Source of the DNA: Clostridia bacterium | GTDB lineage: Bacteria; Bacillota; Clostridia; Oscillospirales; CAG-382 | Assembly: GCA_017516825.1 (NCBI GenBank) | Contig: JAFXBC010000037.1 | Coordinates: 19,824 to 83,823, forward strand | Direction: 5' to 3' | Length of the DNA stretch: 64,000 nt | Shown: positions 17,101 to 42,027 of the stretch, one piece after another | Position numbering within the stretch: position 1 is the stretch's first letter | Layout: each line of letters opens with the position of its first letter | Translations under genes and position numbers: made by a program | The notes under the pieces: generated by a model | What the model was told of the DNA's origin: nothing | Databases searched by the model: none | Seen by the model: the letters and a program-made list of their open reading frames with translations, nothing else

Positions 17101-17103
17101 AGT

Positions 17104-18563: not shown

Positions 18564-18569
18564 CGAAAG

Positions 18570-18606: not shown

Positions 18607-18624
18607 TCGTCTCGTATCAGTCGA

Positions 18625-19086: not shown

Positions 19087-19089
19087 TTC

Positions 19090-25250: not shown

Positions 25251-25301
25251 TCTGCATTTGTCCTAAAGAGGGCATGGCATTGTTGGCGAAAATTACGGAA
25301 G

Positions 25302-25338
25302 AAAAAACGCACCCGCTTTCAAAGCAAGTGCGTTTTTT
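25302..25338 (-). terminator. Intrinsic terminator of the giant gene
   Basis: aaaaaacgcac...gtgcgtttttt hairpin immediately after the stop at 25343. Confidence 0.6.
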
Positions 25339-25342
25339 GTGT

Positions 25343-28300
25343 TCAGGAAAGCTGTTGCATGAGAAGCACGCAGTCGTAGATGGTGAGAACGCCGTCGAAG
25401 TCGAAGTCGTAAAGCGTTTCCGTCTCGGTGTTGCCCACCAGGATGGACATGAGAAGCTCTACGTCAGCTTGGTCGACCACGCCGTTGCCGTCTACGTCGT
25501 AGGCGGGAGTCTTGTCACGGCTTTCCGTCTTGCCGCAGGCGGTACAGGAGCGTTCCTCCTTGCCGGGAGTAGTGTCGTGCCATTCCGTCCATGCGTGGCC
25601 GGTGGGATCCACGTAGTTGTCTACGTAGGTATCGCCACAGTGACATTTGTAGGTGGTAAAGCCTTTCTCCGTGCAGGTGGGTTCTGTTACCACACCTTCA
25701 TGCTTGTGTCCCGTTGCCGCGATGACTTTGGTTTCGTAGTGATCACAGTTTGCACATTCTCTGCGTTGCTCGCCGTTCACGGTACAGGTTGCTTCTTTGG
25801 CAGTCGTCCACTCGCCGTAAGTGTGTCCGGTTGCAGGAGTTTTGTCCGCTACGTAACTATCACCGCAATGACAGGTGTACGTGGTGTAACCTTGTTCGGT
25901 ACAAGTAGGATCCGTTACCACGGCGGTGTAGCGGTGAACGTGTTCCAATTTGGGAAGGATTTCTTCCTTGATCTCTCCGCAGGTTGTGCAGGTGAAGACC
26001 TTGGTGCCCGTGGTATCTTCCGTGGGCTCTTGGGTTACTACGCCTCCGTCCCACGCGTGCCCGGTCGCCGGGGTGTAATTCCCAACGTAATTGTCACCGC
26101 AATGGCAGGTGTAGGTGACGTAGCCCTTCTCCGTGCAGGTGGGGTTGGTGACCACGCTGTCGTAGTCATGGCCGGTTGCGGGAACTTTGTCTGCTACGTA
26201 GGTGTCGCCACAATGACAAGTGTAAGTCGTGTAACCGTCCTCGGTGCAAGTGGGCTTGGTGATCGTTGCTTGGTAGGAATGACCTGTGGCAGGAATGTCT
26301 TTGGTTTCGTAATGATCGCAGTTCTTGCAATCTCTGCGTTCTGTACCGCCATCGATACAGGTTGCTTCCGTGACAGTCTGCCACTCGCCAAAGCTATGTC
26401 CGGTTGCAGGAACTTTGTCTGCAACGTAGCTATCACCGCAAGCACAGGTGTAGGTGGTATAGCCTTCTGTGGTACAAGTGGGTTTCGTTATGGTTGCTTC
26501 ATACCGATGGACGTGATCCAGGGTGGGGATGACCTCCGTCTTGGTCTCGCCGCAAACGGTACAGGTGTAAAGCTTGGAACCCTCGGCTTCTTCAGTAGGC
26601 TCTTTGGCCACAACGCCTCCGTCCCAGGTGTGTCCGGTTGCAGGGGCCTTGTCTGCAACGTAACTATCGCCGCAATGACAAGTATAGGTTGTGTAACCGC
26701 CTTCCGTGCAAGTGGGTTTTGTTACCGTTGCTTGGTAATCGTGTCCCAACGCGGGAACCTTGTCCGCAACGTAGCTATCGCCGCAACGGCAGGTGTAGGT
26801 GGTATAGCCCTCTGTGGTACAGGTGGGTTTCGTTACCGCTACTTCATACCGATGGACGTGATCCAGGGTGGGGATGACCTCCGTTCTGGTCTCGCCGCAA
26901 GCGGTACAGGTGTAAAGCTTGGTGCCCTCGGTCTCTTCGGTAGACTCTTTGGTCACCACGCCTCCGTCCCAGGTGTGTCCGGTCGCAGGGGTCTTGTCTG
27001 CAACGTAGCTGTTACCACAATGACAGGTGTAAGTGGTAAAGCCTTCTGTGGTACAAGTGGGTTTGGTTACCGTTGCTTGGTAATCGTGTCCCAATGCAGG
27101 AACCTTGTCCGCTACGTAACTATCACCGCAATGACAGGTATACGTGGTAAATCCTTCTGTGGTGCAAGTGGGTTTCGTTATGGTTGCTTGGTAATTGTGT
27201 CCCAATGCGGGAACTTTGTCCGCAACGTAAGTATCGCCGCAACGGCAGGTGTAGGTGGTATAGCCCTCTGTGGTACAGGTGGGCTGTGTCACTGTTGTTT
27301 CGTACCGATGGACGTGATCCAGGGCGGGGATGACCTCCGTTTTGGTCTCGCCGCAAGCGGTACAGGTGTAAAGCTTGGTGCCCTCGGCTTCTTCAGTAGG
27401 CTCTTTGGTCACCACGCCGCCGTCCCAGGTATGTCCCAATGCGGGAACCTTATCTGCAACGTAACTGTCGCCACAATGGCAAGTGTAGGTCGTGTAACCT
27501 TCCGCCGTGCAGGTGGGTTTTGTTACTGTTGCCTTGTAACTATGCCCTGTTGCAGACATGACTTTGGTCTCGAAGTGATCGCAGTTTGCACAATCTCTAC
27601 GCTGTTCACCGTTGGCCGTGCAGGTAGCTTCCTTGACGGTTTCCCAATTGCCAAAGCTGTGTCCTGTTGCAGGAGTCTTATCCGCCACATAACTATCACC
27701 GCAATGACAGGCATACGTGGTGTAACCTTCCGCCGTGCAGGTGGATTTTGTTACTGTTGCCTTGTAACTATGCCCTGTTGCAGACATGACTTTTGTTTCG
27801 AAGTGATCGCAATTCTTGCAATCTCTGCGTTGCTCACCGTTGGCGGTGCAGGTTGCTTCTTTTGTAGTTGCCCACTCTCCGAAGCTATGACCTGTTGCGG
27901 GAACCTTATCTGCCACGTAACTGTCGCCACAATGACAAGTGTAGGTTGTGTACCCTTCTGTCGTGCAAGTAGGTTTGGTAACTTTTGCTTGATAGGAATG
28001 ACCTGTTGCGGGAATGTCTTTGGTTTCGAAGTGATCGCAGTTCTTACAATCCCTGCGTTGCTCACCGTTGGCGGTACAGGTGGCTTCTTTCGTGGTCGTC
28101 CACTCGCCAAAGGTGTGACCCTTTGCAGGTACCTTATCTGCCACGTAACTATCGCCGCAATGACAAGTATACGTCGTATAACCTTCTGCTGTGCAGGTGG
28201 GTTTTGTCACAACGGAAGTGTAACTGTGTCCCGTTGCCGCGATTGTTTTCGTCTCGAAGTGATCGCAGTTTGCACAATCTCTCCGCTGTTCGCCGTTCAC

Positions 28301-31300
28301 CGTACAAGTTGCTTCTTTTGTGGTTGCCCACTCTCCGAAGCTGTGTCCCGTTGCAGGAGTTTTGTTTGCCACGTAACTATCGCCGCAATGACAAGTATAC
28401 GTCGTATAACCTTCTGTTGTGCAAGTAGGTTTCGTTATCGTTGCCTTGTAGCTGTGCCCGGTTGCGGGAATTGCCTTTGTTTCGAAATGATCGCAATTCT
28501 TGCAATCTCTGCGTTGTTCACCGTTGGCGGTACAAGTTGCTTCCTTGATAGTCGTCCACTCTCCGAAGCTATGACCCGTTGCGGGAACCTTATCTGCAAC
28601 GTAACTATCGCCGCAATGACAAGTGTAGGTGGTAAATCCTTCTGCTGTGCAGGTAGGTGCCGTTACGGTTGTTTTGTAGCTGTGACCGGTGGCGGCGATG
28701 ACTTTGGTTTCGTAGTGATCGCAGTTTGCACAATCCCTGCGTTGCTCGCCGTTGGCGGTACAAGTTGCTTCCTTGGTAGTCGTCCACTCGCCGAAGGTGT
28801 GACCTGTTGCGGGAGTCTTATCTGCCACGTAAGTGTCGCCACAATGACAAGTGTAGGTTGTATACCCTTCTGTCGTGCAAGTGGGTTTTGTTACTGTTGC
28901 CTTGTAGCCGTGACCCGTTGCAGGGATGATTTTGGTTTCATAGTGATCGCAGTTCTTGCAATCTCTGCGTTGCTCACCGTCTGCGGTACAGGTTGCTTCC
29001 TTGGTAGTCGTCCACTCGCCAAAGCTATGTCCTGTTGCAGGAACTATGTCTGCAACGTAGGAATCACCGCAATGACAAGTGTAGGTGGTGTAACCTTCTG
29101 CCGTACAGGTAGGCTTTGTTACGGTCGCCTTGTAGCTGTGTCCGGTGGCGGCGATGACTTTGGTCTCGAAGTGATCGCAGTTCTTACATTCTCTGCGTTG
29201 CTCACCGTTGGCGGTGCAGGTAGCTTCCTTGACGGTTTCCCACGCGCCAAAGCTATGACCTGTTGCAGAAACCTTGTCCGCTACGTAACTGTCGCCACAA
29301 TGACAGGTATACGTGGTGTAACCTTCCGCCGTGCAAGAGGGTTTTGTTACTGTTGCCTTGTAACTGTGCCCGGTTGCGGGAATTGCTCTAGTCTCGAAAT
29401 GATCGCAATTCTTGCAATCCCTCCGCTGTTCACCATTGGCGGTGCAAGTCGCTTCTTCGGTAGTCGTCCACTCTCCGAAGGTGTGTCCTGTTGCGGGAGT
29501 TTTGTCTGCTACGTAGGAATCACCACAATGACAAGTATAGGTCGTGTAGCCCTCTGTCGTGCAAGTAGGTTTTGTCACAACGGAAGTGTAACTATGTCCC
29601 GTTGCCGCGATGACTTTGGTTTCGTAGTGATCGCAATTCTTGCAATCCCTCCGCTGTTCACCATTCGCGGTGCAGGTTGCTTCTTTTGTGGTTTCCCAAT
29701 TGCTAAAGCTATGTCCCGTTGCGGGAACCTTATCTGCAACGTAACTATCACCGCAATGACAAGTGTACGTCGTGTAACCCTCTGCGGTACAGGTGGGTTT
29801 TGTAACGGTTGCCTTGTAGCTGTGCCCCGTTGCCGCCACTTCCTCCGCTACGTAGCTGTCCCCGCATTCGCAGGTATAGGTAGTATATCCCTTTTCCGTA
29901 CAAGTGGGCGGCGTTACGGTTGCGGTGTAGTGACAAATATGGATGGTAAAGCTTTCTTTACGGATGGTGTATCCGTGGGTGACGTGGATGCTGAAGGTGA
30001 AATCGTAAGGAGAAGCATAGGACACCATTTCCACGGTGTAGGATTCCACCATACTGCCGAAGGAGGCTTGGATCCGGTCTTTCAAAAGTTGCAGAGCTGC
30101 TTCCTTCTCCGGCTCGCCAGTAGGATTCCACTCCATCTCTTCGACGGATTGCAGAAATTTATCCACAGGATCCTGGGTATATACAGACGGCTTGAACTGC
30201 AGGGGACTGCTGATGGCCTCCCGGATGATGCTAAGAATTTCTTCATTGACAGCGCCGGTGTACTGGCTGCCCGTGCCGGTGGCGGCGGGGCCGTTTTCTA
30301 CCGTCAATGCGTTGCCAACGTTCAGAGATCCGCCGTCGATATCCAGAACGTGGCTGTAATGATTGATGAGTTCCGAAAGAACCCCCGCGCCCATGAGGTA
30401 ACGTCCCAATTCGTAGGTAAGGTGGGTAGTGTCACGCTCCAGGAGGCAGTAAGCGTTCTTATCGTACAGCTTGGAGGCGCCAAGATAACTGCTCATGGCG
30501 TTTTGCTTGATGGTGGAGGCGTGGATCACAAAGTCGGGCATATTAGGTGTCCCCGCGGCGATGGCCTTCTCAACGTAGGCGATGTTCGCCAGGGATTTTT
30601 CGTATACCTGCTCTCTGCTCAAAACCTCCAGATAGATCTTGTTCCCGTTGCCGTCGTACAGGGCAGAATCCCCGCCGGTGGAGCGGATATCCACCCAGTC
30701 GGTAAACCAGGCGATCTCGGGGGTGCCTTGGCCTTCGGAAACGGTTCTCACCGCTTGGATGAAGGTTGCCAGCCCTGCGGCGAAGGTTTGGGGATCATCC
30801 ACCACGGATTCCATGTAGTCCTGGATGATGATCAGATCGTAGCGGTTGTTCTTCAGACTCTTGTAAGCTCCCGCAGAGTTTTGCAGTGCCTCCAGGTGGG
30901 AACGGTGGGTGGCGTTGATATTGCTGTTCCTGCCGGAATACAAGCCGATACTGCCGATGGTGGCCTTGCTGATGACGAAATCCGTCTCCAGACCTGCGTT
31001 TTGCAGATCCTTAAGGATGGAGGGCAGGAATTCGCTGTAGTCCACCGTGTGGCTGTTACCGATGCAGAGGATCCGCAGGGTCTCCAGGCGGATGGTCAAC
31101 CCCTTTTCTGCGGCGTAAGCGTAGGCAGGGGAATTGAGGTGCATTCGATAGGTCGCCGTTCCGGGCAGTGCCAAGTCGCAGAAGCCGTTGACACCGTCTT
31201 CGATGGTAACGTCGGTAATAGCGTCCATCACCACGTTCCAGGGAACGTCGGATTGCTTTGCGTAGGCAGTCATGGAGCCGTCGCCTTGTAGGCTGAGCTT

Positions 31301-34300
31301 GAACGTGCCTTTTTCTTCGCCGGCGGTGATGCGATAGGTGACGCTTTCGCCGCAGAAGCCGGAGGTCAGATCCCACAGGAATGCCAACGTGCTTTCCGCA
31401 CCGGGAATGGCAGGGGTGTAGTCCGAAAGGTTGTAGGTATTTTGGGGGACGTCTTTCACCAGAGCCAACGCTTCGTACAGGAGAGACGGGCTTGCCGCTT
31501 CTGCATTCTGCAGGGCGCTTTCCAGCTCCGACAGGGCGGGAGCGAGGTGTGCAAGATCCGTGTAGAACATGGTGACCTTGGAAACGGCGGCGGAAATCTT
31601 TCGATAGCCGTTGCCGCGGATCCAGGATTCCGTGGTGTTCAGAGTGGAAGCGGCGTAGATCTCCAAGGGTTCTTTTCGATCCGTTGTGGAGAACAGCACG
31701 GCGTGAACGGCTACTGTAGCCGTGGGGTTGTCGATGCGGATCTCGCTGATCTTATCCATGTTGGTAAGTGTATACTGCCCAACGTAGGAGATGGTTTCGT
31801 CAAAACGAACGGCGTGGATATCGGCTCTGCTTTGATACCATTCGGTAATACTGTAACGCGAGAGCTGATCGTCGGAATTGGTGTAGTCGGGCAGTCGTCC
31901 GTAGTCTTCCATGGAGGAGTTTCCGAAATCATGGAAGATCAGAACGCCGTTTTCCAGCTTATAGGCCAGATGGTCACTGTTTTTCTCCGTGGAGAGGGGG
32001 ACGGGAGACCAGCCGACGGGGATCAAGGGCTCTTTTTCTCCGCACGCCGTGCAGATACCGTTGGAGTAGCTATGCTCCGCGCTCAAAATATATACTGCAT
32101 AGTGTGCTTGGTTGCCCGTCATGGGAACGTTCAGGGCAACAGCACCTGCGGGGGCGGTGACGTAGCCGTTCTTTGCAAACTCTGCGTAGACTACGTCACG
32201 GGAGAGGGTCTGCAGAACGCCGTTTTCGCCAAACCAGGTGATCCGCACGCCGTTGGCGGTACTGCCGTTATCGGGATAAGCCCCAAAAGAGGTTGCCCAA
32301 ATGCGGTCGCCCTCTTTTACGGGGAAGGTGATAGACCAGCTGTCACCTGCGGAGGTATTGCCCCAGCCGGAGGCTGTGTAGTAGATCTTTTCGGGGGTGA
32401 GGGCCTGCCACAGGTTGGTAGCGGGGCAGTATACCTCGGGAAGCTGTTGCAGATGTCCGTCTGCGGTGAACTTGCCCTTGGCGGTGATCACCAGATCCCC
32501 GGTCACTGCGGGAATGGAGATCACACCGTTTTTGTAAGCGGTGGCGGTAATATCCACCCCGCCCATGGTAACGGTAACGGCAAGGTCTTCCCCGGTGAGG
32601 GTTTCTTCAAAAGACTTTCCTGCGGAAATGCCCTTGTAGTAGCCCAGAGAAGCCTTCGCCTGGGAAAGGCTGTGGGTCACGGTGTGAACCACGGTCTCTC
32701 CTGCGGGGAGAACAAAGGTATCGGTGAGCTTTTCCACCACCGCGGCGGTGATGTAGTCCATACCCTCCGCATTGGGGTGGATGTCATCGGGAAGCATCTC
32801 AAAGGTCACGCCGCAATCCTGCAAGGACAGATACTCCACGCCGTAATGGTCGCAAATGGCCTGCACCACGGGGCCGTACTTATCCAGCTTGGCCTGGGTG
32901 ACGTAGGAGGGCATGGGGTAGGAGGTCATGGCCAGGATCTTGGCCTCGGGGTAGAAGTATTGCAGCCGCATGATAGCCGCCACGTAAGCGTCCGCAAAGG
33001 ACTCCCACTTGGTGGCGGTGAGGTCGACTTCGGTGGGTGCGGTAGCGGGATCAAAGCTGCCCAATGCCACGCCGCGGCCCATATCGTTGCCGCCGCCGAA
33101 GAACAGGATCACGTCGGGAGTACCGTTGGAGCCCAGGTTCTTGATACGGGTGATGGAGGCCATGGCCGCATCGGGACCCAGGTCGCCGGAGTTGGTATCC
33201 TGGGTGTTCAATACCTGAGAGCCTGCCCAGCTGTCGTTGATGCCCAGCTTGGCGTTCAATTCTTGAATGGTCTGCATCCACCAGGTGTCGTTCACGTGGG
33301 TGAGCAGATTGTCCTGGGGATAACGGTCTCTGTGATCTAAGTTAAAGCCGTCCGCAACGGGAGTGTACCCTTCAAAGGTGGAGGTGCTGGCGGACAGAAT
33401 GGAGATCACCTTGCCGTCAAAGCTTTCGGGCTTGGGTTCCTGCTTGCCGCATCCGGCACAAGTACCGTTTTGGTAGACGTGGTCGCGATCAAGGAGGTAG
33501 ATTGCGTATTTTTGATCCGCGGAAGGCATGGGAACGTTCAGGGTGATGGCACCTGCGGGAACGGTGATATAGCCGTTCTTTGTAAACTCTGCGTAGACCA
33601 CGTCACGGGCAACGGTTTCCAGTACGCCGTTTTCATCGAACCAGGTAATACGGGTACCGTTTCCGTTTTCGGGCAGGTTTCCAAAAGAACTTGCCCAAAC
33701 CCGTTCGCCCTCCTTCACGGGGAAGGTAACGGAATGCACGTCGGGAGCATTGGAGAACAAGCCCCAGCCATCTACGGTGTAGTAGATGTTTTCGGGGGTG
33801 AGGGCCGTCCAGAGATTGGTCTTCTTGCAAAGATTCTCGGGAAGCTGTTGCAGGTGGCCCTCCAGCAGAGAAGGAGTGCAACCACATCCCGCACAAGCGC
33901 CGTTTTCGTAGACGTGGTCGCGGTTCAGGACGTAAAGCTCGTTATCGTCACTGCCGTTCCACATGGCGACGTTGATGGCGATGGCGCCCTCGGGGGCGAT
34001 GAGATAGCCGCCGTTTGCGGAGAATTCCTTGTAGGTTCCTGCGGGATCCATGGTCTTCACCACGCCGTATTCCCCAAAGAAGGTGACACGGATGCCATTG
34101 GACGTGGCGTGTCCGTTTTCCACCGCCTTGCCGAAGGAGGTGGCAAAGATCTTGTCCCCCGGCTCCACGGGGATGGTGACGGAGGGCACTTCTCCGGAGC
34201 TGTAAATGCTCCATCTGGTGCCGCTGGCGAAGTAATAGGGATCATGCTCCAGAACTGCCCAAAGGTTGGTATCCTTGCAGTATTCCTCGGGCATGGTCTG

Positions 34301-37300
34301 CATATGAGAAGCCAGGTCGTAGAGCTGCCAGACGCCTTTGAGGACTCTTGTCTGAACAATGCCGCAATCTGTACAGACCCGCTTTTCCTGTCCCGCACCC
34401 TCCGGTGTGGGCTTGAAGACGGTTTCCCAGGCGGACCAGGCGTGGCCGGAAACGGTAACGGTCTGATTGGTATAGGGAGAGCTTAAGGTGCCGCTTTGGG
34501 TGTCGCTGACAGCCAGCAGGTCGTAATACTCCCAGGTCAAACTGTCGGAGAGGGAGTAGGTCACTTCCTTGGATCTCCAAATGGGAGAGACCAGGGGAAC
34601 CACCAGGGTCTCGCTGCCGGGGGTGGTGTTGGCGTCGATGGATTCCACGGGGGTAAAGCCGTCCCAGGAGACGAATTCCACGGTGGGCTCCGTCTCGGGG
34701 GCTTCCAGCACGCCCAAGAGGATCAAAGCGTTGCGGACGGACTCTCTGCCGATCTCGTTGTAGCCGATCTGGTTATAGTGGATGGAATCGTGGACTGCCT
34801 TGGGGGTGGTGGGGGTGTACCAGGATTCTTTCTGGGCCACCTGGGTGGTGTAGTCCACTCTGCCGTTTTCGTAATGTGCGTTGAAATAGGCTTCTACGCC
34901 GTTGGTGCCGTCGGGCATCCAGACCCAATCGTCACCGATGTTGCAAACGCCCCAGATGTCGGAAAGGGCGGGATTGTTGATCATCCAATACTGTGCCACG
35001 CGGGGGCCGTTCATACGGAGATCAACAAAGGATTCATGGTAAGCGTAGGAGTTGGTTGCGGTTTGAACGCCGTCGCGGTAGCAGGCGGCGGTGCTTCCTA
35101 CGCGCACGGGGATGATGCCGCCGAATTCAAAGGTGGTGTCTTCGTCAAAGGCCAGATCCTTCTTCAGATTCTCGTGCATGGCAAGATACTTTTCCACGTA
35201 CCACTTGGCGGTCTGGGTTCTGTCGGAACAGCCCTGGCACCAGAAGTATCCCATGTGGGACAGGGTGTAGTGTCCCGCGGCGATCTCTTTCCGCAGAGTT
35301 TCCTGGCAAGCGCCGAACAGCAGAAGGGCTTCCTCGTAGTTTGCCTTGCCCTTTTGCCAGGTGGTGATAGAGGTACCGCCGTGGGCGGCGTTCACCACCC
35401 AGACCTTCTCCCCGGTCTGCTTCACCCATTCGTAGGCAAAGCCGCTGTCGGGACCCATTCGTCCCGCACCCTCCGCGGTCAGGGAGTTCAGAGGATAACC
35501 GCCCAGACAATCGGTGTTGCCGTTGACGTTCAGCAGACTTCCCGGGCCGGTGAGGGCGGAGGGGGCAAAGCTTGTGGCGTTGTTCACCGTCATGGCGGTG
35601 TTGCTTGCGCCGCGGTCGTCCCCGTAGGTGGAATACACCATGCCGTCGGGGCAGACGATGGATTGATTGGGGTCGCCCTCACTGCCTCGCATATTGCTCT
35701 GCCCGATGAGAAGCAGCAGGGAAATGGGAGCGGCCTTGACGGTGACGGTGTAGGTCACGCCGTCGATCTTGACCTTGGCCGTGCCGATGCCCGTGGCGAT
35801 CAGCTTATTACCGTTCAAAGTGATAACAGCGGTGTCAAGAGTACCCTCCGCCACGCCGTAACCCACTTGGTAAGAGGTGGGCACACCTGCGTCGATGATC
35901 TCAACCTCCTTCCCCGTCACGTCGTAACGATCGTCATAGGACAGGGAGAGGGAGGTGTTCTCGTGAATTTCCATCCACAGAATCTGGTTGTTGCCCAAGG
36001 CGAAGCCGGATGCACCTATGTACGGGAATACAAAATCTTTCCCGGAAAGATAACGATTGTTTTGATTTTGGATTGCGCCGTCAATGATAAGAGTTGTGGT
36101 CGAAGACACCCAAACATCGTCAATATAAATGCCGATGGTATTGGTTCCGTCTTCGGTAACAGCATTTCTGAAAGAGTATACGTGGGGCTTGGTCCAGTCT
36201 ATTTTAACCTGGCTTTGTAATACACCATAGTTTTGATACTTCCCGTCTTTATACTCGCCCACAGATAAAACACCGGTGCCCGACTGGCTTTTGAAAATAT
36301 AAAACTGTCCGGCTACACTCGATGCAGCGGTAGAAAGCGCCATAAAGCGTGTGGAATCTTCTGCATAGAAATCGACACGCCATTCTTTGTCATGCTGCAA
36401 AATAATGTTTTCGGCAAGCTTGTAGACTTGTTGCGTGGAGACTGCCTGCTTGAGGGTGTTTTCGGTAAAGCCTGCGCCGCTAACGGAAACAAGCTCGTTA
36501 TCCTTTAACTCAAAACGATAGCTGTTGTAGCTTTCTTTCCCCGCGACAGAAACCGTTTTTCCACCCACGGAAGCAGAAAGCGTACCTCCGCGGAAGCCGG
36601 AAACGGTAAGGTCGTAATAGTGATACTGAGTGCCTTCGGAGAGGGTATACGTTACACTTTTGGATTCGTAGCAAGGATACACGACGGGAACCACAAGAGT
36701 TTCCGAATTTGCGACGTTTGAGGATTTGATTTGCGTTACGCTTTTGTATCCTGTCCAGTCCACGAACTCAACCCGTGTTTGAACATCCGGCTTTTCCTTA
36801 AGCCCAAGGATGTACATTGTGTTCCTTGCCGCTTCACGGCCAACCTCGTTGTACCCTTTTTGGTAATAATGGATCGAGTTCTTGACTTCTGCGGGAGCCG
36901 TAGGCTTATACCAAGCGTCTCCTTGTTTTGTCTGGGTGGGATAATCTATCGTTCCGTTTTCGTAATGGGCTGCGAAATACTCTGCCACGCCGTCGCTTCC
37001 GTCGGGCATTGTGACCCAATCCTGTGCAATCGTCGATACAATGTGAATATCTTCAAGTTCCGGATTATTTGCCATCCAGATCTGAGCGACTCTCGGGCCG
37101 CGCATTTCCAGCTCTTTGAAGGTTGCGAAGAAGGCTTCGGAGCTATCTTCGTAAGTGCCGTGACGATAGCCGACTGCGTTTTCGTGTCCCGCCATTACAA
37201 GAATAATATTTCCGAATTCGAAGGTGACCTTGTCCGTGCTTTCGTTGATGGTTGCATCAAAAGCAAGCGCTTCCTTAAGGGCGTCGTGCATTGCGGTATA

Positions 37301-39772
37301 GCGCTCTACATACCATTCTGCCGTTCGGGTTTCATCGGCACACCCTTGGCACCAATAATAGCCCATTCTGGAAAAGGTATAGTGACCGGCAGCGATCTCT
37401 TTCAAAAGCACTTCTTCGCAAGCGGAGAATAGTGCAACTGCTTCTTCGAAGTTGCTTTGCCCTTTTTGCCAGCTGGAAATGCTGGACGCACCGTGCGCTG
37501 CATTGATGACCCAAACCTTTTCGCCGGTCTGCTTCACCCATTCGTAGGCAAGACCGCTGTCCATGCCATATTTGCCGTTCCCCGCCTCGGTAAGGGAGTT
37601 TACGGGATATTCACCTAACTTCGTATTATTGCCATTGATATTTACGGTGCTGTAAGTACCTGTCAATGCGGAAGGGACGTAATTTCTTGCGTTTTCCACA
37701 GTTAAGCCGGCGTCGCCGACAAGGCCGTTTGCCTTGGCGTAGGTGGAATATACCTGGCCGTTTTCGCAGGCAATAGATTGATTGGCTACGCCAACCATGC
37801 CTTCGGCGTTGCTCTGCCCGATGAGAAGCAGCAGGGAAATGGGCGCCGCCTTGACGGTGACGGTGTAGGTCACGCCGTCGATCTTGACCTTGGCCGCGCC
37901 GATGCCCGTGGCGATCAGCTTGTCACCGTCCAAGGTGACCACAGCGGTGTCAAGAGTACCCTCCGCCACGCCGTAACCCACCTGATAAGAGGTAGGCTTG
38001 CCCGAGTCGATGATCTCAACCTCTTTCCCCGACACGTCGTAACGATCGTCATAGGAAAGGGAGAGGGAGGTGTCCTCACAAACCAGAAGGTATTCCAATT
38101 TACAATCGTTCAGCGGAGCGGAGTCCGTCCCCAGGTAGCCGAAGGAGAAATCCTTCCCGGAGACCCAGTTCGACGTAGTGTTCTGGGCCTTGCTTCCCAC
38201 GAAGTAGTTGTTCATGGGCAGGGCTTCGCCGCCGTCCAGGGACAGGTAGATCATATTACTGCCGTCTGCGGCAATGCGGTTTTCCAGACGGAAGGTGTGG
38301 GTGCCTGCGTCCAAGGCGGAAAGATCCACGCCGTAGTTATCGTATTGAGAACCGCTCCATGCACCGAAGCACAGTTGTCCGCCCTTGGTGCGGGAGAGGT
38401 AGTATTTGCCCACGGTGGCGGTGATGGGTGCGGAGGTCAGGATAGCACCCCGCCAATCTCCGCCGCACTTCCATTCCAGAACCCAGGGACGGTCGTGCTT
38501 CAGCACCATGGGGATGGCCGCTTGGTATCTGCCACCTGTAATCACCCCGTCCGTGACGGTTCCCGCAAGGGCGGTCAGGGCGTTTTCGTCTCCCAAAGAG
38601 CGCAGGGAGGAACCCTCCATTTCCCAGCGGAAGTGCAAGGGGGTGCGGTCTGCTTTTGCAGTGATGACCAGATCACCCGTCACCTTTGAGACGGTAATCT
38701 TCCCGTCGGCGTATGCCGTTTGGGTAATATCCTCGCCGCCCATGGTGACGGTGACGCTAAGGTTGGAATAGCCCGGTTCGGGAGTGAGAGTAGCCTTGTA
38801 AGCCTCCCCCGTGATGGCCGCGGCGGCGGGATGGTCGGTGGTAACTCCATCGTATTCCCCGGTGACCTCCTGCAAGGTCACCTCTCTCCCCAGCATGACG
38901 CTGAGAAGCTCCTCGGAGATCCGATCCATGCCCTCTGCGTTGGGATGGGCGCGCTTGTCACCCATAAGACTATCAAAAATTTCCACGTCCTTGGGGATTG
39001 CCTTTTCCAGATCCACCACGGGGTAACCGAAGTGGGCGGCAACCTCCCAAAGCTGGGCGCTGTATTCCGTGGGCTGTCCCGCGTCGGGATAGCTGTCCCC
39101 GGTGTAGTCCACCTCCCGCCGTGCGGTGGAGGTGATGCAGTAGATCTCCGCTTCGGGGTAGCGGGTAGCGGCTTTGTGCAGGGTGATGGCGTAGGCCTCG
39201 CAGGTGGTGGTGGGCTCGGCGTAGGTATAGCTGCCGTCCCCGTTGGCCTTGATCAGGGCGTCGTAATCCACGTCTGCCGCCTTGCCGTAGGTGTCCTTGT
39301 AGTAGGCAAAGTCGTTGCCGCCGATGTACACCCAGATGATATCCGGCTCTTCTCCCGTGTGGTCGTTGTGGAGGTTCACCGCTCTGTCCTTGTAGGCGAC
39401 GGAGGCCTCTCCCTTGCGGGGCTGCAGAACGCAGGAGCCGCTCCAGGAGTTGTTCACCAGCAGGCGCATATCCAGAACGTCAATGACCTGTTGCCACCAG
39501 GTGTCCTCACGGTAGACACCATGTCTGCCCTCGGTGTAGTAAACGTCATTCTTACCGATAGTGGAGTTGTCCGCCGTATTGTTGGAGACCCCGTCGTAGG
39601 TAGAAGCGCTGTGGCTGAGAATGGAAACGGTCTTCCCGCGGAAAGAATCCACGGAAACCGCTGTCGCTTGCGTCTCCGCCGTCAGCTCTTGTGCCAGTGC
39701 TATGAAAGCATTCAGCGGCAGGGAGGTGACCAGCATCAGCAGGGTGAGCAGAAATGAGAGTGTACGTTTCAT
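25343..39772 (-). CDS. Giant (4809 aa) secreted multi-domain carbohydrate-esterase-like protein with Cys-rich module array and C-terminal dockerin
   Basis: Uninterrupted ORF with GGAGG SD 7 nt upstream and signal peptide MKRTLSFLLTLLMLVTSLPLNAFIALA. SGNH blocks (SILSHSAS/NNSWSGS/GGND/DKRAHPN and SILSASTS/NDSWAGS/GGGND/DDIHPN). Two SASA-type domains (IGQSNAEG..AAHGASSISSW..YWCQGCADE and IGQSNMRG..AAHGGTSITTW..FWCQGCSD). A DUF4886-like LCIGNSHT domain, LamG-like and BspA-like LRR segments, repeats and a dockerin. Confidence 0.85.
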   Translation of the reverse strand: MKRTLSFLLTLLMLVTSLPLNAFIALAQELTAETQATAVSVDSFRGKTVSILSHSASTYDGVSNNTADNSTIGKNDVYYTEGRHGVYREDTWWQQVIDVLDMRLLVNNSWSGSCVLQPRKGEASVAYKDRAVNLHNDHTGEEPDIIWVYIGGNDFAYYKDTYGKAADVDYDALIKANGDGSYTYAEPTTTCEAYAITLHKAATRYPEAEIYCITSTARREVDYTGDSYPDAGQPTEYSAQLWEVAAHFGYPVVDLEKAIPKDVEIFDSLMGDKRAHPNAEGMDRISEELLSVMLGREVTLQEVTGEYDGVTTDHPAAAAITGEAYKATLTPEPGYSNLSVTVTMGGEDITQTAYADGKITVSKVTGDLVITAKADRTPLHFRWEMEGSSLRSLGDENALTALAGTVTDGVITGGRYQAAIPMVLKHDRPWVLEWKCGGDWRGAILTSAPITATVGKYYLSRTKGGQLCFGAWSGSQYDNYGVDLSALDAGTHTFRLENRIAADGSNMIYLSLDGGEALPMNNYFVGSKAQNTTSNWVSGKDFSFGYLGTDSAPLNDCKLEYLLVCEDTSLSLSYDDRYDVSGKEVEIIDSGKPTSYQVGYGVAEGTLDTAVVTLDGDKLIATGIGAAKVKIDGVTYTVTVKAAPISLLLLIGQSNAEGMVGVANQSIACENGQVYSTYAKANGLVGDAGLTVENARNYVPSALTGTYSTVNINGNNTKLGEYPVNSLTEAGNGKYGMDSGLAYEWVKQTGEKVWVINAAHGASSISSWQKGQSNFEEAVALFSACEEVLLKEIAAGHYTFSRMGYYWCQGCADETRTAEWYVERYTAMHDALKEALAFDATINESTDKVTFEFGNIILVMAGHENAVGYRHGTYEDSSEAFFATFKELEMRGPRVAQIWMANNPELEDIHIVSTIAQDWVTMPDGSDGVAEYFAAHYENGTIDYPTQTKQGDAWYKPTAPAEVKNSIHYYQKGYNEVGREAARNTMYILGLKEKPDVQTRVEFVDWTGYKSVTQIKSSNVANSETLVVPVVYPCYESKSVTYTLSEGTQYHYYDLTVSGFRGGTLSASVGGKTVSVAGKESYNSYRFELKDNELVSVSGAGFTENTLKQAVSTQQVYKLAENIILQHDKEWRVDFYAEDSTRFMALSTAASSVAGQFYIFKSQSGTGVLSVGEYKDGKYQNYGVLQSQVKIDWTKPHVYSFRNAVTEDGTNTIGIYIDDVWVSSTTTLIIDGAIQNQNNRYLSGKDFVFPYIGASGFALGNNQILWMEIHENTSLSLSYDDRYDVTGKEVEIIDAGVPTSYQVGYGVAEGTLDTAVITLNGNKLIATGIGTAKVKIDGVTYTVTVKAAPISLLLLIGQSNMRGSEGDPNQSIVCPDGMVYSTYGDDRGASNTAMTVNNATSFAPSALTGPGSLLNVNGNTDCLGGYPLNSLTAEGAGRMGPDSGFAYEWVKQTGEKVWVVNAAHGGTSITTWQKGKANYEEALLLFGACQETLRKEIAAGHYTLSHMGYFWCQGCSDRTQTAKWYVEKYLAMHENLKKDLAFDEDTTFEFGGIIPVRVGSTAACYRDGVQTATNSYAYHESFVDLRMNGPRVAQYWMINNPALSDIWGVCNIGDDWVWMPDGTNGVEAYFNAHYENGRVDYTTQVAQKESWYTPTTPKAVHDSIHYNQIGYNEIGRESVRNALILLGVLEAPETEPTVEFVSWDGFTPVESIDANTTPGSETLVVPLVSPIWRSKEVTYSLSDSLTWEYYDLLAVSDTQSGTLSSPYTNQTVTVSGHAWSAWETVFKPTPEGAGQEKRVCTDCGIVQTRVLKGVWQLYDLASHMQTMPEEYCKDTNLWAVLEHDPYYFASGTRWSIYSSGEVPSVTIPVEPGDKIFATSFGKAVENGHATSNGIRVTFFGEYGVVKTMDPAGTYKEFSANGGYLIAPEGAIAINVAMWNGSDDNELYVLNRDHVYENGACAGCGCTPSLLEGHLQQLPENLCKKTNLWTALTPENIYYTVDGWGLFSNAPDVHSVTFPVKEGERVWASSFGNLPENGNGTRITWFDENGVLETVARDVVYAEFTKNGYITVPAGAITLNVPMPSADQKYAIYLLDRDHVYQNGTCAGCGKQEPKPESFDGKVISILSASTSTFEGYTPVADGFNLDHRDRYPQDNLLTHVNDTWWMQTIQELNAKLGINDSWAGSQVLNTQDTNSGDLGPDAAMASITRIKNLGSNGTPDVILFFGGGNDMGRGVALGSFDPATAPTEVDLTATKWESFADAYVAAIMRLQYFYPEAKILAMTSYPMPSYVTQAKLDKYGPVVQAICDHYGVEYLSLQDCGVTFEMLPDDIHPNAEGMDYITAAVVEKLTDTFVLPAGETVVHTVTHSLSQAKASLGYYKGISAGKSFEETLTGEDLAVTVTMGGVDITATAYKNGVISIPAVTGDLVITAKGKFTADGHLQQLPEVYCPATNLWQALTPEKIYYTASGWGNTSAGDSWSITFPVKEGDRIWATSFGAYPDNGSTANGVRITWFGENGVLQTLSRDVVYAEFAKNGYVTAPAGAVALNVPMTGNQAHYAVYILSAEHSYSNGICTACGEKEPLIPVGWSPVPLSTEKNSDHLAYKLENGVLIFHDFGNSSMEDYGRLPDYTNSDDQLSRYSITEWYQSRADIHAVRFDETISYVGQYTLTNMDKISEIRIDNPTATVAVHAVLFSTTDRKEPLEIYAASTLNTTESWIRGNGYRKISAAVSKVTMFYTDLAHLAPALSELESALQNAEAASPSLLYEALALVKDVPQNTYNLSDYTPAIPGAESTLAFLWDLTSGFCGESVTYRITAGEEKGTFKLSLQGDGSMTAYAKQSDVPWNVVMDAITDVTIEDGVNGFCDLALPGTATYRMHLNSPAYAYAAEKGLTIRLETLRILCIGNSHTVDYSEFLPSILKDLQNAGLETDFVISKATIGSIGLYSGRNSNINATHRSHLEALQNSAGAYKSLKNNRYDLIIIQDYMESVVDDPQTFAAGLATFIQAVRTVSEGQGTPEIAWFTDWVDIRSTGGDSALYDGNGNKIYLEVLSREQVYEKSLANIAYVEKAIAAGTPNMPDFVIHASTIKQNAMSSYLGASKLYDKNAYCLLERDTTHLTYELGRYLMGAGVLSELINHYSHVLDIDGGSLNVGNALTVENGPAATGTGSQYTGAVNEEILSIIREAISSPLQFKPSVYTQDPVDKFLQSVEEMEWNPTGEPEKEAALQLLKDRIQASFGSMVESYTVEMVSYASPYDFTFSIHVTHGYTIRKESFTIHICHYTATVTPPTCTEKGYTTYTCECGDSYVAEEVAATGHSYKATVTKPTCTAEGYTTYTCHCGDSYVADKVPATGHSFSNWETTKEATCTANGEQRRDCKNCDHYETKVIAATGHSYTSVVTKPTCTTEGYTTYTCHCGDSYVADKTPATGHTFGEWTTTEEATCTANGEQRRDCKNCDHFETRAIPATGHSYKATVTKPSCTAEGYTTYTCHCGDSYVADKVSATGHSFGAWETVKEATCTANGEQRRECKNCDHFETKVIAATGHSYKATVTKPTCTAEGYTTYTCHCGDSYVADIVPATGHSFGEWTTTKEATCTADGEQRRDCKNCDHYETKIIPATGHGYKATVTKPTCTTEGYTTYTCHCGDTYVADKTPATGHTFGEWTTTKEATCTANGEQRRDCANCDHYETKVIAATGHSYKTTVTAPTCTAEGFTTYTCHCGDSYVADKVPATGHSFGEWTTIKEATCTANGEQRRDCKNCDHFETKAIPATGHSYKATITKPTCTTEGYTTYTCHCGDSYVANKTPATGHSFGEWATTKEATCTVNGEQRRDCANCDHFETKTIAATGHSYTSVVTKPTCTAEGYTTYTCHCGDSYVADKVPAKGHTFGEWTTTKEATCTANGEQRRDCKNCDHFETKDIPATGHSYQAKVTKPTCTTEGYTTYTCHCGDSYVADKVPATGHSFGEWATTKEATCTANGEQRRDCKNCDHFETKVMSATGHSYKATVTKSTCTAEGYTTYACHCGDSYVADKTPATGHSFGNWETVKEATCTANGEQRRDCANCDHFETKVMSATGHSYKATVTKPTCTAEGYTTYTCHCGDSYVADKVPALGHTWDGGVVTKEPTEEAEGTKLYTCTACGETKTEVIPALDHVHRYETTVTQPTCTTEGYTTYTCRCGDTYVADKVPALGHNYQATITKPTCTTEGFTTYTCHCGDSYVADKVPALGHDYQATVTKPTCTTEGFTTYTCHCGNSYVADKTPATGHTWDGGVVTKESTEETEGTKLYTCTACGETRTEVIPTLDHVHRYEVAVTKPTCTTEGYTTYTCRCGDSYVADKVPALGHDYQATVTKPTCTEGGYTTYTCHCGDSYVADKAPATGHTWDGGVVAKEPTEEAEGSKLYTCTVCGETKTEVIPTLDHVHRYEATITKPTCTTEGYTTYTCACGDSYVADKVPATGHSFGEWQTVTEATCIDGGTERRDCKNCDHYETKDIPATGHSYQATITKPTCTEDGYTTYTCHCGDTYVADKVPATGHDYDSVVTNPTCTEKGYVTYTCHCGDNYVGNYTPATGHAWDGGVVTQEPTEDTTGTKVFTCTTCGEIKEEILPKLEHVHRYTAVVTDPTCTEQGYTTYTCHCGDSYVADKTPATGHTYGEWTTAKEATCTVNGEQRRECANCDHYETKVIAATGHKHEGVVTEPTCTEKGFTTYKCHCGDTYVDNYVDPTGHAWTEWHDTTPGKEERSCTACGKTESRDKTPAYDVDGNGVVDQADVELLMSILVGNTETETLYDFDFDGVLTIYDCVLLMQQLS
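25346..25501 (-). other. Type-I-like dockerin module (C-terminus of giant protein)
   Basis: YDVDGNGVVDQADVELLMSILVG...DFDFDGVLTIYDCVLLMQQLS: two Ca-binding-loop plus helix segments (DxDxDGxxxxxD). Confidence 0.7.
25502..29925 (-). repeat. In-frame tandem array of ~36-39-aa cysteine-rich modules (~39 modules, ~4.4 kb)
   Basis: Hand count gives 22 type A (TKPTCTxEGYTTYTCHCGDSYVADKxPATGHS), 12 type B (GEWTTTKEATCTANGEQRRDCKNCDHxETKxIxATGHSY) and 5 type C (GHTWDGGVVTKEPTEEAEGTKLYTCTACGETKTEVIPxLDHVHRY). The A+B pairs form ~228-nt DNA repeats. Confidence 0.85.
35696..35962 (-). repeat. 267-bp intragenic direct repeat, copy 2 (Big_2-like segment)
   Basis: Nearly identical by eye to 37811-38077 (offset 2115 bp). 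Encodes ...YDDRYDV(S/T)GKEVEIID.G.PTSYQVGYGVAEGTLDTAV.TL.G.KLIATGIG.AKVKIDGVTYTVTVKAAPISLLLLIGQSN. Confidence 0.8.
37811..38077 (-). repeat. 267-bp intragenic direct repeat, copy 1
   Basis: See 35696-35962. Confidence 0.8.
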
Positions 39773-41479: not shown

Positions 41480-41515
41480 AGCGGTCGCTCCTTTTATGTT
41501 TACGTGTACGAATTC

Positions 41516-41544
41516 AGTATACTCCTTTGAGAAAGGTTTGTCAA
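41516..41544 (-). promoter_or_regulatory. Candidate sigma-A promoter (TTGACA-17-TATACT)
   Basis: Minus strand has TTGACA (41544-41539), a 17-nt spacer and TATACT (41521-41516). Confidence 0.5.
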
Positions 41545-41545
41545 G

Positions 41546-41577
41546 GAAAAAACACAAAACCGTCCCGGGGGACGGTT
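41546..41577 (-). terminator. Intrinsic terminator of the low-GC two-gene cassette
   Basis: ccgtccc/gggacgg hairpin, followed on the minus strand by TTTTGTGTTTTTTCC. Confidence 0.6.
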
Positions 41578-41595: not shown

Positions 41596-42027
41596 TTATT
41601 CTGCGATAGCGGCGGGACCGTGCTTGTCGTGCGTATCAAAGCTGTCGTATTTATTGCAGAAACGCTCAAAATCACTGAATAGATCTTCATAATGCAAGTA
41701 GAAACCGGTGGCGGACAGCATACCGTCATTAAAAAGATCATAGATCGATGCTTCCAACTGTAAACGGAGCGCTTCGTTTTCTTGATCGAACTCCGTTTCT
41801 TCGTACGCCACAAACGCCGTTTTCAAGGCACATTCCCATGCACTGATGTAGAGTGCATCTTCCTCCGATTCTCGGAGTGTTTCGTAGAGGGCAATCATTT
41901 CCGCCACGGGGAGCTCCGTTTCGTGCGGTTGGGGCTTTTGGAACAGGTACAACACCCACCCCGTTGAGAGACCCGCCACCGCTAACACGGCGAGGGTGAT
42001 GGAAAGAGCCTTCTTAAAAGGTGTCAT
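41596..42027 (-). CDS. Small N-terminally membrane-anchored hypothetical protein
   Basis: Start ATG 42027 (MTPFKKALSITLAVLAVAGLSTGWVLYLF) overlaps the upstream stop (ATGA). 143 aa, acidic helical-looking ectodomain, no family recognised. Confidence 0.5.
   Translation of the reverse strand: MTPFKKALSITLAVLAVAGLSTGWVLYLFQKPQPHETELPVAEMIALYETLRESEEDALYISAWECALKTAFVAYEETEFDQENEALRLQLEASIYDLFNDGMLSATGFYLHYEDLFSDFERFCNKYDSFDTHDKHGPAAIAE

Follow-up and report, generated by a model that had tools for sequence, protein, structure and literature searches.

The window (the whole stretch of 64,000 nucleotides that was analysed) contains a gene for a 4809-aa secreted multi-esterase whose enzyme head and probable C-terminal dockerin are separated by 39 tandem Cys/His modules. 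These modules probably make up a long and rigid stalk, clamped by zinc, that keeps the esterase head away from its anchor, the metal sites lying between modules rather than within them. The array is best read as a further case of a stalk domain noticed in 2025 in an antibody-cutting protease of a gut bacterium. This building block is very common (72,385 clusters at 50% identity), putative and without a name in Pfam or NCBIfam. The features on which this reading is based are the following.

25343–39772, minus strand: esterase gene (ORF and translation; 4809 aa), laid out as signal peptide, enzyme head (aa 1–3277), 39-module stalk and dockerin.
29942–39691, minus strand: enzyme head (Pfam scan and chunked self-comparison).
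34343–34441, minus strand: lone C-like module within the head (aa 1778–1810, AWSAWETVFKPTPEGAGQEKRVCTDCGIVQTRV; HMM E-value 0.0055).
29930–29941, minus strand: 'H-I-C-H', the N-terminal cap, immediately ahead of the first module (from the sequence).
25499–29935, minus strand: array of 39 tandem Cys/His modules (aa 3280–4758).
27542–29821, minus strand: ten consecutive A-B units (aa 3318–4077; 228-nt DNA period).
25595–27541, minus strand: mixed A/C/B part of the array, including all four full C modules (aa 4078–4726).
25499–25594, minus strand: C-terminal cap module, the last and truncated C (aa 4727–4758, AWTEWHDTTPGKEERSCTACGKTESRDKTPAY).
25346–25501, minus strand: probable type I dockerin of the esterase (aa 4758–4809).

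Lipase_GDSL_2, Lipase_GDSL_lke and SASA all score above cut-off in a Pfam scan of the protein. The head includes two SGNH/GDSL hydrolase domains (aa ~42–290 and ~2116–2345), a duplicated block that covers both SASA matches (aa ~451–1046 and ~1151–1743, by self-comparison), an unnamed domain of ~130–150 aa in three copies (chunked self-comparison) and a last, likewise unnamed domain (aa 2791–3277), from which two more distant orthologues go directly into a dockerin, without any array. The lone C-like module in the head is directly preceded by 'GH' and is kept in the L001 orthologue. At the other end, the dockerin shows two Ca-loop-like motifs, DVDGNGVVDQAD and DFDFDGVLTIYD, and matches Dockerin_1 with an E-value of 2.9e-4 and 21.4 bits, just below the cut-off of 22.9, which homologous tails pass (41 bits for P0022, for example). 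In those window ORFs that were scanned, no cohesin gene turned up.

The modules are 37–39 aa each and follow one another uninterruptedly in the order AABABABABABABABABABABACAAACAACABAACABAC. The hand count of the initial annotation (22 type A, 12 type B and 5 type C, about 39 in all) was thus reproduced exactly, by HMM and by splitting the sequence. Its three types are all homologous and represent a single module in variant forms (78% identity between A modules, 32% between A and B). Full modules match the module HMM with E-values of 1e-13 to 1e-20 and the terminal cap with 1e-6; these values are circular, as the HMM was built from the same 39 modules, and independent support comes from 1241 database homologues. 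Each A or B module has three Cys and one His, and the array holds 112 module cysteines in all. In the full C modules, Cys1 is replaced by Glu and 'DH-VH' or 'EH-VH' follows each of them, while the C-terminal cap module retains CxxC but has neither Cys1 nor the terminal His.

The modules are shared with one neighbouring gene and not, as had been proposed, with two. The features concerned are these.

39929–41557, minus strand: transglutaminase-core gene (Pfam Transglut_core, E-value 4.8e-10); translation probably begins at the ATG at 41479, for a protein of 516 aa, the length also given by the gene caller.
~40109–40414, minus strand: mini-array of two A-type modules and one cap module.
39956–40096, minus strand: dockerin-like end (Dockerin_1 at 17 bits, below cut-off), which aligns with the dockerin tails of homologues.

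The three modules already noted before the dockerin of this transglutaminase-like protein were recovered by the module HMM (E-values of 4e-13, 3e-10 and 0.018), with an 'HIH' cap just upstream of the first one in the sequence. In the AlphaFold2 model of the C-terminal 159 aa (pLDDT 87), three three-stranded units are followed by two dockerin helices. The other gene (42024–43052) is matched by neither module HMM and reaches a profile-profile probability of 2.3%, and is therefore not a module carrier.

The initial annotation did not recognise the modules as a named domain, and they indeed correspond to no named family in Pfam or NCBIfam, nor do they have a single-sequence PDB match. The literature does know a homologous domain. 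A module profile search hits PDB entry 9qa6_A, the IgA protease of Thomasclavelia ramosa, only at ZBD1/ZBD2 (= CTD2/CTD4; E-value 3.3e-6), and hhalign of the module profile against the ZBD regions gives 94% probability, an E-value of 1e-7 and 108 aligned columns. ZBD1/2 were described as three-stranded up-and-down sheets with putative, predicted tetrahedral Cys2His2 or Cys3His zinc sites at the subdomain interfaces; three subdomains cover ~110 Å, and ZBD1 subdomain I distantly resembles the TFIIS zinc domain (PMC12237041). A second study showed by SAXS that this region (CTD2) forms a rod in full extension; its single-layer sheets with little hydrophobic core were compared to G5, and it is termed an uncharacterised metal-associated periscope fold (PMC12415215). 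In homologues, arrays likewise sit between a head and an anchor, their ends being dockerin, SLH, Big_2 or transmembrane segments.

An A-B-A-C-A fragment (aa 4002–4192) was predicted by AlphaFold2 with a mean pLDDT of 95.4 as an up-down-up sheet with three strands per module. Cys1 is placed in the loop between strands 1 and 2, the CxC or CxxC knuckle in the turn between strands 2 and 3 and the terminal His after strand 3, so that Cys1 and the His are opposite to the knuckle, with a 7-residue strand between them. If Cys1 and His of one module are combined with the knuckle of the next, all 38 junctions receive at least four Cys/His ligands (exactly four in 37) and all 112 cysteines are used. In terms of module counts, which are not phylogenetically independent (C-type modules, for example, are all of common ancestry), [H/C]xH occurs at 31 of the 36 junctions that follow a module without Cys/His at position 1 versus 13 of 324 otherwise (p 3e-29), and at 63/93 versus 32/1743 in 150 further proteins (p 3.5e-69); Cys1 is exchanged for His in 13 modules. 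Among more divergent relatives, about one-third of the modules without Cys1 have no second His afterwards.

Array ends show the complementary pattern. [H/C]xH is found at 13/31 array starts versus 13/324 internal junctions (p 6e-9) and, in a larger set, at 101/405 versus 32/1743 (p 3e-50); a clean motif is present at only ~25–40% of the starts, whose detection is contaminated by unrecognised modules, and the esterase's own H-I-C-H (H-x-x-H or C-H spacing) does not match it and is a looser fit. The last modules of homologue arrays necessarily retain CxxC, as this motif is part of the pattern used to detect them. They are without Cys1 in 45/62 cases and without the terminal His in 39/62, and 37/62 have neither, versus 0/361 internal modules. 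These data support the view that the modules are metal-site-like and not random Cys-rich sequence. The sites appear to be split between adjacent modules (Cys1 and His of module i, CxxC/CxC of module i+1), a geometry deduced from the topology of the strands and from sequence statistics.

Combined with the published models, the following view of the stalk can be proposed. The 39 modules are copies of one domain of ~38 aa, whose three-stranded up-down-up sheets would be stacked lengthwise to give a thin rod. At every junction a single metal ion in tetrahedral coordination, most likely zinc, would act as a clamp, its ligands being Cys1 and the terminal His of one module and the knuckle (CxxC or CxC) of the following one. 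Junctions after A and B modules would be Cys3His sites, and those after C modules, which have no Cys1 but a second His ('DH-VH'), Cys2His2 sites. The H/C-rich start cap would supply the two ligands otherwise given by a preceding module, and the cap module with CxxC alone would close the chain. The rod, possibly of the order of 100 nm long, would act as a stiff spacer in the 'periscope' manner and keep the SGNH and SASA multi-esterase head far from the dockerin, which may plug into a scaffold that carries cohesins or into the cell surface. A rigid stalk, one of the roles first suggested for the array, is the best reading. According to SAXS of the IgA protease, the ZBDs may be joined to adjoining domains by flexible linkers (PMC12237041), so rigidity across all 39 modules is an assumption.

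It had also been suggested that each module is a mini zinc-ribbon; it would then be an independent bead on a string that binds metal through Cys1, Cys2, Cys3 and its own His. The presence of exactly three Cys and one His in every A and B module agrees with this, as do weak, sub-threshold matches to zinc-ribbon-type Pfam families here and in homologues, and the extra His after C-type modules is also compatible with an intra-module site. This reading is nevertheless unlikely: the predicted position of Cys1 and the knuckle at opposite ends of a strand, together with the array-end patterns (HxH/CxH at starts, last modules with CxxC but lacking Cys1 and the terminal His), which it leaves unexplained, indicates that neighbours probably share their sites, as at the subdomain interfaces of the published ZBD models. 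A metal-free disulfide knot, the other proposal for the cysteines, would suit an extracellular, repeated, Cys-rich protein but is very improbable. It is disfavoured by the presence of three cysteines in each A and B module, by the exchange of Cys1 for His or Glu and by the extra His that offsets its loss; it would leave the invariant terminal His without a role. Moreover, the homologous IgA protease contains 24 Cys, yet disulfides were neither observed nor predicted for it (PMC12237041), and the source of the esterase is a gut anaerobe MAG, for which a reducing habitat is inferred.

Could the array instead serve chiefly as a surface that binds glycans, plant cell wall or mucin multivalently, like small Cys-stabilised carbohydrate-binding modules, and be no passive spacer? 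In favour of this, the modules belong to a carbohydrate esterase, Tyr/Thr are conserved on strands 2 and 3 of A modules (GYTTYT, SYV) and Trp in B and C modules, and extra functions were left open in the literature (PMC12415215). However, the aromatic positions are type-specific and just 40–50% conserved across the family, the same modules are borne by very different heads (protease, transglutaminase-like, esterase, LRR domains), array-less orthologues exist and the ZBDs are dispensable for substrate cleavage by the IgA protease according to the literature. A mainly binding role is accordingly decidedly unlikely, although the conserved surface Tyr/Thr of A modules could bind in addition to the stalk function. 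Extremely improbable is a short-read assembly artefact in the array or its copy number, which the origin from a metagenome scaffold might suggest, as might the related MAG, whose ~95%-identical orthologue, the nearest relative, has 35 modules in another order versus 39 here. Tandem Repeats Finder gives the expected period of 228 nt at 27440–29833 (10.5 copies, 78% matches), and periods of 345 and 456 nt at 26406–27539. The A-B pairs, announced as 11 near-identical repeats, number 10 contiguous ones and 12 in the whole array, and the ten units share 72–86% of their nucleotides (mean 79%; 79–92% of amino acids), with a longest exact common run of 50 nt and synonymous differences in 42% of same-amino-acid codons. 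Assembly collapse, of which the array had been called a hotspot, is therefore unlikely; the 14.4-kb reading frame is also intact, the identical 4809-aa protein is recorded on two ENA contigs and arrays of 14–71 modules occur among the best 150 matches of the family search.

The closest known system is the IgA protease itself (Q9AES2, IgAse/ThomasA; 9QA6 construct). Both proteins have homologous end-to-end three-stranded up-and-down sheets, outside Pfam, with predicted inter-sheet Cys/His sites (Cys2His2 or Cys3His), placed between the enzyme head and the anchor at the C terminus; a stalk or 'periscope' role is proposed for both. ZBD1 even opens with H-T-H, and its last module has neither Cys1 nor the terminal His, as in the cap pattern of the arrays described here. 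The protease, however, has only 3 and 2 dissimilar subdomains with an Ig-like barrel between them, predicted Cys2His2 sites, an M64 protease head and a sortase motif, whereas the esterase has 39 uninterrupted modules with regular A-B alternation, mostly Cys3His among its proposed sites, a multi-esterase head and a dockerin.

Periscope Proteins (SasG/Aap G5-E, Rib, SHIRT; PMC8201768) are likewise rods of tandem folded domains from head to anchor, whose repeat number varies among close relatives as it does here. E and G5 of SasG/Aap alternate much as A and B do, and G5 sheets are also single-layer with little hydrophobic core. They are of another fold and family, are stabilised by interdomain interfaces rather than by proposed Cys/His metal clamps and lack a dockerin anchor; their class is defined by high DNA repeat identity, unlike the esterase repeats. 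Classical zinc ribbons (TFIIS C-terminal domain; Pfam zinc beta-ribbon) are likewise small antiparallel sheets of three strands in which a hairpin turn carries a CxxC knuckle, but bind one ion through two CxxC knuckles of one domain. In the esterase module, the first knuckle is a single Cys, the fourth ligand is a His and the site is apparently completed by the adjacent module; its modules are also extracellular and in long tandem arrays.

Finally, cellulosome- and amylosome-type enzymes of Oscillospiraceae/Ruminococcaceae are also secreted and carbohydrate-active with a (probable) type I dockerin end, and the esterase host is likewise placed among Eubacteriales/Oscillospiraceae MAGs. What precedes the dockerin in such enzymes is usually a short Pro/Thr-rich linker or an X module, whereas in the esterase it is a 1,480-aa array of folded modules.

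A single minus-strand ORF (25343..39772) encodes a protein of 4809 aa that has a signal-peptide-like N-terminus and whose SGNH/GDSL and SASA esterase domains score above the Pfam thresholds (Lipase_GDSL_2, 90 bits; Lipase_GDSL_lke, 85 bits; SASA, 83 bits). Cutting this protein at the recurring 'GH' from residue 3278 to its end gives 39 consecutive units of 37–39 aa. These correspond to 22 A, 12 B and 5 C modules, the final C being truncated, in the order AABABABABABABABABABABACAAACAACABAACABAC, in exact agreement with the hand count of the initial annotation and well beyond chance. At the DNA level, Tandem Repeats Finder detects a 228-nt period (10.5 copies, 78% matches) and, in the mixed part of the array, periods of 345 and 456 nt. 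The plus-strand ORF that lies opposite the repeats (25274..31291, 2005 aa) is most plausibly an antisense frame of repetitive coding sequence that is free of stops, and not a gene.

According to a multiple alignment, A, B and C are variants of one homologous module with the consensus x-[YW]-x3-V-T-x-P-T-C-T-x2-G-x5-C-x(1,2)-C-[GD]-x8-A-x-G-H. Identity reaches 78% between A modules, 32% between A and B and 24% between A and C, and averages 37% between neighbours in the array. A six-frame scan of the window with the module HMM finds modules in two genes only, including two locations outside the main array:

aa 1778-1810 of the giant protein, minus strand: isolated C-like module, outside the array (module HMM)
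within the neighbour gene 39929..41557, minus strand: mini-array (A, A, cap; aa about 378-483 including the start cap) preceding the dockerin-like end (module HMM)

The second of these bears out the proposal that modules also precede the dockerin of the transglutaminase-like neighbour. The attribution of modules to three genes does not hold: the third gene (42024..43052, minus strand) gives no match with the module HMM and only a 2.3% probability in profile-profile comparison with the stalk module, and was rejected as a module carrier on these grounds. Its 342-aa product has no Pfam or NCBIfam match. The gene lies in a stretch of lower GC content (0.506 over 42-44 kb vs about 0.55-0.58 nearby), and no homology links the Cys/His motif at the C-terminus of the product (…HHRVFCLLCNYSYNESH…GTKCIKCK…) to the stalk module.

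The array is located between the multi-esterase head and a probable dockerin, and homologues carry the same modules between different heads and anchors, in keeping with the stalk-like character originally suggested. The Dockerin_1 scores of the giant protein (21.4 bits) and of its neighbour (17.0 bits) are both under the Pfam cut-off of 22.9. Both D-x-D-x-[DN]-G loops are found in the two dockerin-like ends, an AlphaFold2 model of the neighbour tail has two helices in its dockerin-like part and homologous tails exceed the Dockerin_1 cut-off. No cohesin was seen among the window ORFs scanned.

The repeats had been considered near-identical and, as such, a hotspot of assembly collapse. This is contradicted by their divergence: the DNA of ten A-B units is 72–86% identical (mean 79%; protein, 79–92%), 42% of the codons specifying the same amino acid differ synonymously and the longest exact run common to two units is 50 nt. 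To judge by these values, the A-B units are old, selectively maintained copies and not near-identical repeats liable to collapse. In the giant protein, as in Periscope Proteins (PMC8201768), similar folded domains follow one another in a tandem array that separates a functional domain from an anchor, and the A-B alternation resembles the E-G5 alternation of SasG (PMC8201768). Unlike Periscope Proteins, which have long, highly similar DNA repeats (PMC8201768), the giant gene shows only the DNA identity given above. As a result of the alternation, neighbouring modules are about one-third identical, which fits the known avoidance of high identity between neighbours in tandem domains.

An identical 4809-aa product is recorded on two ENA contigs. 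The copy-number comparison proposed at the outset could be made for one orthologue pair, both members coming from short-read metagenome assemblies: the protein of the Eubacteriales bacterium SGB_1321 MAG (locus L001), with a head about 95% identical, carries 35 modules instead of 39, in a different order. No further close relative was found in a scan of metagenome contigs. In two more distant Oscillospiraceae loci (L002, 711-4982; L003, 6152-9691), orthologues of the last head domain (52–56% identity) run straight into a dockerin without any module array, so that the stalk appears to be an optional insertion.

AlphaFold2 modelled the A-B-A-C-A segment (aa 4002-4192, 35-row alignment) with a mean pLDDT of 95.4 and three strands per module (roughly residues 2-7, 15-21 and 26-32). 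For the neighbour, the last 159 aa were modelled with a pLDDT of 87.0 as three three-stranded units followed by two helices assigned to the dockerin. Structure prediction, also proposed initially, gave a three-stranded module in both cases, at the level of secondary structure. Given hairpin connections, each sheet would be an up-down-up meander, with Cys1 (in the loop between strands 1 and 2) and the terminal His (after strand 3) at one end and the CxC/CxxC turn (between strands 2 and 3) at the opposite end, beside the preceding junction. With this topology, a site made of the four ligands of a single module would have to span a 7-residue strand. A Foldseek search of the PDB with the five-module model returned nothing (best E 8.5e-3, TM 0.15), which is taken to fit the zinc-binding domains (ZBDs) discussed below being unmodelled in deposited structures.

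Single-sequence PDB searches with the module found nothing, and literature searches on cysteine-rich repeats, dockerin and extracellular zinc ribbons yielded nothing relevant. By contrast, a five-module profile run against PDB sequences recovered one non-trivial entry, 9qa6_A 'IgA protease' (E 3.3e-6), through which the papers on this Thomasclavelia ramosa enzyme (IgAse) were reached. The match is limited to chain residues 843-979 and 1090-1142, which correspond to ZBD1 (E879-T1008) and ZBD2 (G1101-T1171) under an offset of about +29 residues, the chain start being assumed near mature residue 31. An hhalign comparison matches the profile to the ZBD1 segment over 108 columns, in register with three modules, at 94.2% probability (E 1.1e-7), and the last ZBD subdomains reach 29.0 and 27.7 bits with the single-module HMM. 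As judged from these profile comparisons, the window modules are homologous to ZBD1 and ZBD2, for which Pfam returned nothing. The HMM search suggested in the initial annotation therefore matched no Pfam or NCBIfam family yet led to a domain described in 2025, so that the module is absent from these domain libraries without being unrecognised.

ZBD1 and ZBD2 are elongated chains of subdomains in AI models, about 110 A for three, with predicted Cys2His2 sites, one Cys3His site and no disulfides, their zinc binding being 'pending experimental validation' (PMC12237041). In a second study, the same regions are called CTD2 and CTD4; Cys/His zinc pockets are predicted to link their sheets, isolated CTD2 is a fully extended rod by SAXS and zinc regulation is raised as a mere possibility (PMC12415215). 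The IgAse subdomains are described as three-stranded antiparallel sheets, connected up and down and arranged end to end, and three strands per module are found in both AlphaFold2 models of the window proteins. The window array is a new case of a recently recognised and still putative kind of stalk domain: the module was first noticed in 2025 in a single protein, through predicted models and SAXS, whereas the window holds a true tandem array of 39.

The modules had been viewed as self-contained mini zinc ribbons or disulfide knots. A classical zinc ribbon draws four ligands from two CxxC knuckles of one domain, whereas in the window module the first knuckle offers one Cys (P-T-C-T-x-x-G) and a His serves as fourth ligand; no zinc-ribbon-type Pfam family matches the window modules above its curated threshold (best matches, 10–14 bits vs cut-offs of 25–29). 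A disulfide would not account for the 13 modules that have a His in place of Cys1, a swap that makes sense between metal ligands and is meaningless for a disulfide. The metal-site character of the module is retained, the sites being probably shared between modules. Each would be formed by Cys1 and His38, the terminal His, of module i and by Cys2 and Cys3 of module i+1. The start cap, which opens the array, would give two ligands, Cys1 and His would be passed to the CxxC of the next module and the end cap, which closes the array, would retain its CxxC alone.

The first two of the three predictions of this model, compensation for Cys1 loss and the ligands of last modules, appear strongly borne out by sequence statistics. 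Among 120 homologues and the window proteins, the junction has [H/C]xH after 31 of the 36 modules without Cys/His at position 1 vs 13 of 324 normal modules (Fisher p 3e-29); neither these counts nor those that follow are phylogenetically independent. The same holds in 150 further large proteins (63/93 vs 32/1743, p 3.5e-69), the compensation being less regular in distant relatives. A Cys1 ligand is present in only 17 of 62 last modules and a terminal His in 23; both are absent from 37/62 last modules vs 0/361 internal ones (p 1.6e-24 and 2e-36 in the last-module tests), retention of the CxxC being there by construction, as last modules were found by it. The caps preceding both dockerin-like ends in the window (...PGKEERSCTACGKTESR... 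and ...PGKEERVCDLCGKTETR...), which in the giant protein is aa 4727-4758, obey the end-cap rule. At the other extremity, HxH/CxH is enriched at array starts (13/31 vs 4% internally, p 6e-9). In the larger protein set the values are 101/405 vs 1.8%; the regex used to locate where arrays begin and end in these 150 large proteins fails to recognise divergent modules, which contaminate the result, so that such cap fractions are lower bounds. One giant homologue has 'C-x-H' ahead of at least 17 of its separate mini-arrays. In the window, the neighbour gene has the start cap 'HIH' and the giant gene 'HICH', a looser fit.

Applied to the window array, the scheme gives at least four Cys/His ligands at 38/38 junctions and exactly four at 37 of them; 34 junctions are Cys3His and four, each after a C module, are Cys2His2. 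With the start cap included, 39 sites would use all 112 module cysteines. Furthermore, ZBD1 of IgAse opens with H-T-H, and its final module has neither Cys1 nor terminal His, in line with the independently derived cap grammar. Taken together, the sequence statistics and ligand bookkeeping fit tetrahedral Cys/His sites between modules. This grammar offers a direct and cheap test of an interlocked zinc chain and natural construct boundaries for a first experimental structure.

The family is very large. A word-indexed search with the 191-aa A-B-A-C-A fragment retrieved 1241 proteins that, where named, belong to Oscillospiraceae, Clostridia or Ruminococcus MAGs and whose partner domains include dockerin, SLH, cohesin and Big_2. 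A HMMER scan of 1.84 billion representatives of 50% identity clusters with the five-module profile gave 72,385 proteins at E <= 1e-3, 47,181 at E <= 1e-10 and 17,705 at E <= 1e-30; the best 150 of the 72,385 matches have 14–71 modules each (median 33) in proteins of up to 7,583 aa. These searches show the module to be among the commoner unnamed domains of metagenome proteins. Pfam leaves the repeats uncovered in every family member tested, NCBIfam has no model for the module, and scans of whole proteins and isolated modules with both libraries returned, for the module, weak zinc-finger-like noise only. The other Pfam matches on the window modules are below family cut-offs, except PGM_PMM_III (25.8 bits vs 20.7), which was flagged 'faint' and discarded as evidently spurious. 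DUF7479 and zf-CHY were likewise rejected as family assignments for homologues, their matches being partial and below or barely at cut-off; the homologue P0008 passes DUF7479 solely through a partial match of 18 residues. Many giant array-bearing homologues (P0125, P0126, P0128, P0129, P0131, P0132, P0137, P0167) share one conserved tail (C-x-C-x-C-H-x2-G-…-IYKI-x2-FFWK-x-F-…-C-x-C-G-x2-H-Y) that suggests an unrecognised anchor or sorting signal of Cys-rich, amphipathic type at the C-terminus.

Concerning function, we infer that the array serves as a stiff spacer. Its 39 modules would together extend over roughly 100–140 nm, at 2.5–3.7 nm per module, the lower bound being derived from strand length and the upper one from the published 110 A per three subdomains. 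The metal is predicted to be zinc from ligand chemistry and the reference papers. The conserved Tyr/Thr/Trp surface of the modules may have a binding role. It seems rather unlikely, although conceivable, that the approximately 39 interlocking Cys/His sites turn the stalk into a zinc-dependent mechanical element altering enzyme reach. In that case, plentiful zinc would keep the stalk a stiff rod of roughly 100 nm, and zinc deprivation, e.g., by host metal sequestration in the gut, would let it soften or collapse, thereby changing the reach of the enzymes. The very abundant module arrays could also serve gut Clostridia as a large zinc store or buffer outside the cell. The system is of interest for the length of its array, for the very large size of a family that has no name and for a cap/ligand grammar that can be tested. 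With a named domain model, very many giant surface proteins in gut and rumen Clostridia would be better annotated, and it would be easier to interpret how far cellulosome-type enzymes project from the cell.

The genes around the array are ordinary chromosomal genes. They encode a formate-tetrahydrofolate ligase, an aspartate-semialdehyde dehydrogenase, a peptidase U32, a beta-lactamase-family protein, a two-component system and a MatE transporter. The mechanical ORF of the neighbour gene opens at TTG 41557, a signal-peptide-like stretch (MKRFFKVRLL…) begins at an ATG 26 codons further on and the product listed by a gene caller has 516 aa; translation probably starts at 41479. Downstream of the giant gene, the window encodes a 516-aa protein without Pfam match (23618-25168), whereas the L001 counterpart (15739-19647) is a 1303-aa dockerin-ended protein; the neighbourhood therefore varies between close relatives.

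The head of the giant protein contains several internal repeats. A large duplication (aa 451-1046 vs 1151-1743, nt about 34544-38422, minus strand; 39–69% identical) spans both SASA matches. The two SGNH domains (aa 42-149 of domain 1 and aa 2116-2225 of domain 2) are alike, and a short Ig-like piece is present twice (aa 322-377 and 2385-2436). A domain of about 130–150 aa, for which no matching Pfam family was found, occurs three times (aa 1820-1950, 1970-2100 and 2413-2569, 41–57% identical; window 33473-34315 and 32066-32536, minus strand). Each copy closes with a short H-x-Y-x-N-G-x-C-x-x-C-G motif (DHVYENGACAGCG, DHVYQNGTCAGCG, EHSYSNGICTACG) that looks like a minimal His + CxxC clamp.
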